Below, piece after piece: positions 6,436 through 6,570 of a stretch of DNA of 64,000 nt (its first letter is position 1; the number at the start of each line of letters is the position of its first letter). The position numbers were made by a program, and so were the translations under genes. Below the pieces are notes generated by a model. It worked only from the letters and a program-made list of their open reading frames with translations. It was not told where the DNA came from and searched no databases. Origin of the DNA: Escherichia coli (GTDB lineage Bacteria; Pseudomonadota; Gammaproteobacteria; Enterobacterales; Enterobacteriaceae); NCBI RefSeq assembly GCF_003334305.1, contig NZ_QOWS01000005.1, one strand, 5' to 3'.

Positions 6436-6570
6436 AGGTGTTTTCTCCTTTCTGATTTACAGTCGAAGCCCACGTAACGGGCGCAATATAAATACTCCTG
6501 TCGAGTGAAATATTTTTTGTTTTTGATCAAGCTCACATCTTTTTTGATGCATGCATGAGCCATAAGGCGG

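Follow-up and report, generated by a model that had tools for sequence, protein, structure and literature searches.

The question raised by the region upstream of ydfZ is whether a short, imperfect palindrome found there is an operator for FNR, as an earlier note on this DNA had proposed, or a match to the FNR consensus that arose by chance. The window (the whole stretch of 64,000 nucleotides of Escherichia coli chromosomal DNA that was analysed) carries ydfZ at 6232..6435 and rspR/ydfH at 6613..7299, both on the minus strand, and the palindrome is placed between them. It is the 14-mer TTGATcaaaAACAA at 6517..6530; reading the minus strand from 6530 to 6517 gives TTGATCAAAAACAA, that is TTGAT-caaa-AACAA, which agrees with the consensus TTGAT-N4-ATCAA at nine of ten positions. 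The sole mismatch is a T to A change at the second position of the right half, and the ydfZ ATG follows 88.5 bp downstream of the site's centre. The element had been described as a 15-mer at 6516..6530 (tttgtttttgatcaa on the plus strand, TTGATCAAAAACAAA as read on the minus strand); its sequence and the count of nine matches are right, but base 6516, the extra A, falls outside the motif. The main text of Myers 2013 prints the ydfZ site as TTGATaaaaAACAA, whereas Table S6 of the same paper reads TTGATCAAAAACAA (PMC3688515). The printed form is a small misprint, as the K-12 genome and the window both read TTGATCAAAAACAA.

To score candidate sites, a symmetric position weight matrix (PWM) for FNR was built from 61 sites at the ChIP-seq peaks of Myers 2013, with both ydfZ entries left out. 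The ydfZ site scores 13.95-14.06 bits, which is rank 2 in the 64-kb window and higher than 36% of the 61 training sites. Positions scoring as well or better are expected 0.74 times per random 64 kb and about 0.002 times per 200-nt upstream region. When matches to the consensus with at most one mismatch are counted, the window holds six, compared with 3.74 +/- 1.83 expected, and 18 of 100 shuffles reach six. By consensus or by PWM, the match by itself is not significantly above chance within the 64 kb. Of the six consensus matches, five are inside open reading frames, the ydfZ match being the only intergenic one. One of the others, TTGAACAGGATCAA at 3170..3183, also agrees with the consensus at nine of ten positions (9.6 PWM bits); it is located at the 3' end of rspB, about 100 bp before the start of ydfJ, and is probably a chance match.

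The top PWM match of the window is a different sequence, GTGATTTAAATCAA / TTGATTTAAATCAC at 21759..21772, with 17.2 bits against 13.95 at ydfZ. It is found inside marB (open reading frame 21693..21911, minus strand), and Myers 2013 lists it as 'Within marB', not at a ChIP-seq peak and overlapping Fis enrichment (Table S6, PMC3688515). Because this stronger motif is reported to be unbound in vivo, sequence alone proves nothing here. The view that the ydfZ 14-mer is a chance match without function can point to the marB motif and to the absence of enrichment (six matches of such quality in the window where about four are expected), and the ydfZ case illustrates that a match at nine of ten positions is not evidence by itself. 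The ydfZ site rises above chance through where it lies, how well it is conserved and the occupancy published for it, not through the match.

The published data come from K-12, so that the identity of the two promoters matters. The 91-bp promoter core of the window is 100% identical to that of K-12 MG1655 (b1541; Grainger 2007, Myers 2013), and the interval from -50 to +1 is identical to the K-12 sequence published in Kim 2012; it is the same element, and the K-12 data apply directly to the window. The neighbourhood, rspR-ydfZ-ydfI, is also the same. Kang 2005 and Mettert 2008 are said to have described the K-12 ydfZ promoter as well, and direct FNR regulation of ydfZ in vitro was reportedly seen in Kang 2005.

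FNR occupancy at ydfZ appears as a peak in three independent published data sets. Grainger 2007 found a ChIP-chip peak at the gene (PMC1802558). The ChIP-seq data of Myers 2013 have a summit at 1,627,208, and the gene is listed there as 'directly activated by FNR', with two motifs of which the top one is at -41.5 (Table 1, PMC3688515). Federowicz 2014 gives Fnr ChIP peaks at 1627076-1627334 and 1627005-1627617, scored as 'Activation' (PMC3974632). The ydfZ promoter has also been used as a positive control in published FNR gel shifts (EMSA). In the literature, we found neither a base-pair-resolution FNR footprint of the ydfZ promoter nor a point mutation of the 14-mer. These ChIP and EMSA results, together with the class II position and the expression data described below, agree with the original proposal of an FNR site upstream of ydfZ.

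The accompanying statement that ydfZ is anaerobically induced is likewise in accord with published RNA, sigma-70 and delta-fnr data. In Myers 2013, the sigma-70 ChIP signal at ydfZ goes from 63 under aerobic conditions to 3597 under anaerobic conditions (about 57-fold), the aerobic/anaerobic RNA ratio is 0.011 (an anaerobic rise of about 90-fold), and comparison of the wild type with delta-fnr scores the gene as activated (Table S8; PMC3688515). Fusions of the promoter to lacZ (PydfZ-lacZ) are a standard published reporter, classified as 'class II, FNR-activated'. The ydfZ FNR site is thus an already known, well-documented and ordinary element. A functionless chance match is refuted by the published occupancy and expression data, and given the three ChIP data sets, the use as an EMSA control and the reporter fusions, we assign it a negligible probability. 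The FNR occupancy, the FNR-dependent anaerobic rise in sigma-70 and RNA, and the transcription start site (TSS) are published results, while the sequence, geometry and conservation are those of the present analysis.

The geometry follows from the mapped start. Kim 2012 places the ydfZ +1 at 1627192 on the + strand, with a 47-nt 5' UTR, in one high-throughput data set (41 reads; PMC3415461). K-12 coordinates (U00096.2) can be converted to those of the window as 1627144 + (6530 - window coordinate), and +1, a G, is then at 6482 on the minus strand. This puts the 14-mer at -48..-35 with its centre at -41.5, the canonical class II arrangement, and the mapped start is thus compatible with the site; so exact a geometry also argues against a chance match. 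The -35 region proper (6517..6512, -35..-30) reads AAAAAT. As the -10 hexamer we infer TATTTA (6489..6494, -12..-7), a weak element with three of six matches to TATAAT and with A instead of T at -7.

The earlier note had based its spacing argument on another hexamer, TATATT (6485..6490, -8..-3), which agrees with TATAAT at five of six positions. The hexamer is indeed present, at a distance of 40 bp from the FNR site's 5' edge and 33.5 bp from the site's centre, but its proposed role as the -10 does not hold: it is out of register with the mapped TSS and could serve only if the start were mis-mapped by about 4 nt. The two hexamers overlap by two bases. The spacing argument was 4 bp off, the class II position holding relative to TATTTA and not to TATATT. 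By sequence, TATATT is the better hexamer, TATTTA being without the usually critical T at -7. If transcription did begin about 4 nt downstream (near 6478, with TATATT in use), the FNR site would be at -45.5, which is still class II by the +/-4 nt band of Myers 2013, as at frdA (PMC3688515).

A scan of 6100..6700 for sigma-70 consensus promoters gave no match and does not locate the -10. This null result is consistent with activator dependence, since activator-dependent promoters are expected to be without the consensus. With AAAAAT at -35..-30, no sigma-70 consensus and a -10 matching at three of six positions, the promoter has the weak core of a class II promoter.

Conservation was assessed with a genome scan for YdfZ, which yielded 17 loci, or 16 independent ones after a contaminant contig (L009) was dropped, from at least six enterobacterial genera. 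The scan used exact-peptide seeds and was of limited reach; it returned no Salmonella or Klebsiella (a published orthology table gives KPN_01509 as the Klebsiella ydfZ orthologue), and the conservation described here covers the listed genera only. In 14 of the 16 loci, the best FNR-PWM hit within 150 nt upstream of the gene is 77.5-102.5 bp from the ATG, and in 13 of the 14 no position in the entire locus of about 3.2 kb scores higher. The 14 loci belong to five Escherichia lineages, Citrobacter amalonaticus, Franconibacter helveticus, Enterobacter pulveris, strain LSJC7, four Buttiauxella and Shimwellia. For comparison, mononucleotide shuffles of the homologue upstream regions contain a site with at least nine of ten matches in 1.3% of cases and one with at least eight in 13%.

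Wherever it was measured, the site centre is 28.5-29.5 bp upstream of a -10-like hexamer. The hexamer is TATTTA in Escherichia, Citrobacter and Buttiauxella (29.5 bp in all three), TAAAAT in Franconibacter and Enterobacter pulveris, TAGAAT in Shimwellia and CACAAT in LSJC7. Such spacing in the homologues favours TATTTA as the -10 register in E. coli. The operator block and the -10/+1 block do not vary between Escherichia and Citrobacter, and the 22-nt spacer that separates them has diverged in sequence and kept its length. An identical 91-bp core is present in 5285 of 5418 E. coli records, whereas the surrounding 551 bp, with its ydfI / ydfZ / rspR annotation, reaches at least 99% identity in only 1519. 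What sets the real site apart from the chance match is its place relative to the mapped start, together with the spacing kept across genera, and conservation at a fixed distance from the -10 further opposes the chance reading.

Three of the loci call for separate comment. The dropped contig (NZ_VLXZ01000251.1, 265 bp, 0.79x coverage) is from an assembly labelled 'Alkalicoccobacillus porphyridii' and matches the E. coli ydfZ promoter and 5' coding sequence at 100% identity; the contig is almost certainly an E. coli contaminant in that assembly. The ydfZ paralogues of Kluyvera sichuanensis and Buttiauxella gaviniae (copy A), loci L011 and L012, have no FNR-like site. They have instead a LexA-box-like sequence (CTGTATAAATAAACAGT / CTGTATATATAAGCAGT) about 160-180 bp upstream of the ydfZ-like gene, possibly belonging to a neighbouring gene. 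With copy A lacking the FNR-like site, B. gaviniae has one FNR-type and one non-FNR copy of ydfZ.

Which register FNR uses is a further question. The segment TTGATCAA is its own reverse complement, and it does double duty, as the left half of the FNR site at -41.5 and as the right half of GTGAGcttgATCAA, whose centre is at -47.5. Because of this self-complementarity, there is a second register 6 bp upstream (GTGAGCTTGATCAA / TGTGAGCTTGATCAAA), which the earlier note missed. FNR might in principle act from this -47.5 register (6536..6523), with the -41.5 match as a by-product of TTGATCAA. Grainger 2007 did choose the -47.5 register for the ydfZ ChIP peak (centre 1,627,144.5; PMC1802558). In Myers 2013 it is ranked second, and the scores are close: both sequences are entered at the peak in Table S6, TTGATCAAAAACAA with start 1627144 and a PatSer score of 13.58, GTGAGCTTGATCAA with start 1627138 and 13.18 (PMC3688515). 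Our own PWM gives 13.19-13.45 bits at -47.5 and 13.95-14.06 at -41.5.

Geometry and conservation separate the two registers. The -47.5 register is 6 bp, or about 200 degrees of helix, from the class II position, and it is outside the band of -41.5 +/- 4 that is home to 19 of 23 FNR-activated promoters (Myers 2013, PMC3688515). In the more distant genera, the FNR-like site that is 28.5-29.5 bp from the -10 corresponds to the -41.5 register. Within Escherichia, E. albertii, E. whittamii and two further lineages read TGTGAACTTGATCATAAACAA; there the -47.5 register drops to seven of ten matches and 5.15 bits as an FNR site, whereas the -41.5 register stays at nine of ten and 12.07 bits. Since the albertii-type changes spare -41.5 and collapse -47.5 as an FNR site, the -41.5 register is, by this sequence comparison, the conserved FNR site, and FNR action from -47.5 is very improbable. 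The same changes leave the -47.5 register with nine of ten matches as a CRP site, and conservation of the upstream TGTGA seems to serve another purpose, CRP binding being the simplest candidate.

The CRP-like site is TGTGAgcttgaTCAAA / TGTGAGCTTGATCAAA at 6522..6537 on the minus strand, centred at -47.5. It extends the -47.5 register by one base at either end (the 14 bp inside, GTGAGcttgATCAA, are the 'second FNR motif') and agrees with TGTGA-N6-TCACA at nine of ten positions. The FNR and CRP-like sites overlap by 9 bp, so that the two proteins could not occupy ydfZ jointly. One can therefore ask whether the promoter, in addition to its FNR site and compatibly with it, has a CRP operator, with cAMP-CRP on TGTGAgcttgaTCAAA and FNR on the 14-mer excluding each other. 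We consider this possible, though rather unlikely. A 2026 Footprint-seq preprint describes an in-vitro CRP footprint on exactly TGTGAgcttgaTCAAA, with an estimated Kd of 5.2 nM (PMC12871828), and a genomic SELEX study names ydfZ among its new CRP targets. Overlapping FNR/CRP sites are also already listed at uxaB, ptsH and guaB (Myers 2013, PMC3688515). On the other hand, in the literature that mentions ydfZ we found no in-vivo CRP occupancy or crp-dependent expression, a centre at -47.5 fits none of the standard CRP activation positions (-41.5, -61.5, -72.5 ...), and the 14-mer originally noticed is the FNR site, not the CRP site. The published FNR data are silent on CRP either way, because they come from cells in glucose medium, a condition that leaves CRP largely inactive.

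Comparative sequences bear on the same point. The TGTGA is invariant in all Escherichia lineages and in Citrobacter, including the albertii-type variants, and Franconibacter, Enterobacter pulveris and Shimwellia have a separate perfect or near-perfect CRP box, TGTGATATTCATCACA, with their FNR-like site 29 bp further downstream. This pattern suggests that CRP input to ydfZ may be ancestral, and the conserved TGTGA taken together with the separate boxes in Franconibacter and Shimwellia is a hint that such input could be selected as well. A functional CRP site here would more likely serve repression or competition than activation. A tentative proposal is then that carbon status modulates, and most simply dampens, FNR-dependent expression of ydfZ. 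In its full form, for which we would claim only a minority chance, the promoter would be a two-register switch in which FNR at -41.5 activates and cAMP-CRP at -47.5 (6 bp and about 200 degrees away) excludes FNR. Were this true, carbon status would gate the anaerobic induction of ydfZ, and the putative CRP role would matter for the use of PydfZ-lacZ as a 'pure' FNR read-out in glucose-free media.

Hybrid CRP/FNR sites provide a useful comparison. At uxaB, ptsH and guaB (Myers 2013 Table 3, PMC3688515) and in the ompW site TTGATTTAAATCAC, one stretch of DNA fits both TTGA-N6-TCAA and GTGA-N6-TCAC. At ydfZ, in contrast, the two sites do not coincide but are offset by 6 bp, with only TTGATCAA shared. 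FNR clearly dominates at ydfZ under the conditions tested.

Returning to FNR at -41.5, we hold with high confidence that the 14-mer serves as operator in a class II, FNR-dependent ydfZ promoter. In this mechanism, [4Fe-4S]-FNR dimerises when oxygen is absent and binds TTGATcaaaAACAA, centred at -41.5. The site stands in for a -35 element, the -35..-30 interval being AAAAAT, and bound FNR recruits sigma-70 RNA polymerase to a promoter that would otherwise be very weak, with TATTTA as its probable -10. The contacts are presumed to be those established at other promoters of this class: alpha-CTD with activating region 1 of FNR, and sigma region 4 with activating region 3. When oxygen degrades the cluster, FNR loses dimerisation and DNA binding, and the promoter becomes nearly silent.

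This arrangement resembles that of the class II promoters of dmsA, narG, nirB, nrfA and narK, all with sites at -41.5. As in those five, the 14-mer replaces the -35 element, and sigma-70 occupancy and RNA rise anaerobically (Myers 2013 Table 1, PMC3688515). The ydfZ promoter differs from them in the right half-site, which is AACAA and not ATCAA, in its unusually poor -10, and in having no NarL/NarP or IHF input listed (category 1 in Myers 2013, PMC3688515). It appears to be a 'simple' FNR promoter. It is among the best-behaved FNR-only promoters in E. coli and serves as a routine reporter of FNR and Fe-S cluster status.

Downstream of the start, the 47-nt 5' UTR (6436..6482, minus strand) includes a Shine-Dalgarno sequence, AGGAG, at 6449..6445. 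It leads into the 67-residue ydfZ coding sequence, annotated as a putative selenium delivery protein (TIGR03318 YdfZ_fam, 1.5e-37, 127.9 bits). The first 15 nt of the mRNA (6468..6482, +1..+15) are predicted to fold into a 5'-terminal hairpin, GCCCGUUACGUGGGC, which may act as a 5'-end stabiliser. The fold energy of the 47-nt UTR is not significantly different from that of shuffled sequences (z = -0.75), and an Rfam search of 6100..6700 at E<=1 gave no RNA family. The block CGCCCGTTACGTGGG at the transcript start is conserved as far as Citrobacter, which has a 15-nt insertion just after it.

Two further hairpins flank the transcription unit. Upstream, CTCTCATCC-N6-GGATGAGAG (6581..6604, minus strand) lies 9 nt after the stop codon of rspR (ydfH). 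On the rspR strand, a short T-run comes next and then a C-run; the hairpin falls below the threshold of the terminator scan because the T-run is short. Its stem is conserved across Escherichia with compensating changes (alignment A1). We regard it as a probable rspR terminator, which would insulate the ydfZ promoter from upstream transcription. Downstream, an intrinsic terminator hairpin with a T-run (6204..6224, minus strand) has a 9-bp GC-rich stem between flanking A and T runs. It is found between the convergent ends of ydfI (6196) and ydfZ (6232), and it looks like a bidirectional intrinsic terminator common to both genes. One data set of Myers 2013 scores ydfI as 'activated' (Table S8, PMC3688515), which might reflect antisense read-through from ydfZ.

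Beyond that terminator, rspA (944..2191), rspB (2179..3222), ydfJ (3280..4647) and ydfI (4736..6196) are contiguous on the plus strand at 944..6196, beside the regulator gene rspR. Here the window strain, which is not K-12, differs from MG1655. In MG1655, ydfJ has lost its N-terminal part and is a pseudogene directly next to the Qin prophage. In the window, ydfJ is intact (455 aa) and contiguous with its neighbours, from which it follows that this strain has no Qin prophage at ydfJ and retains an undisrupted rspAB-ydfJI cluster.
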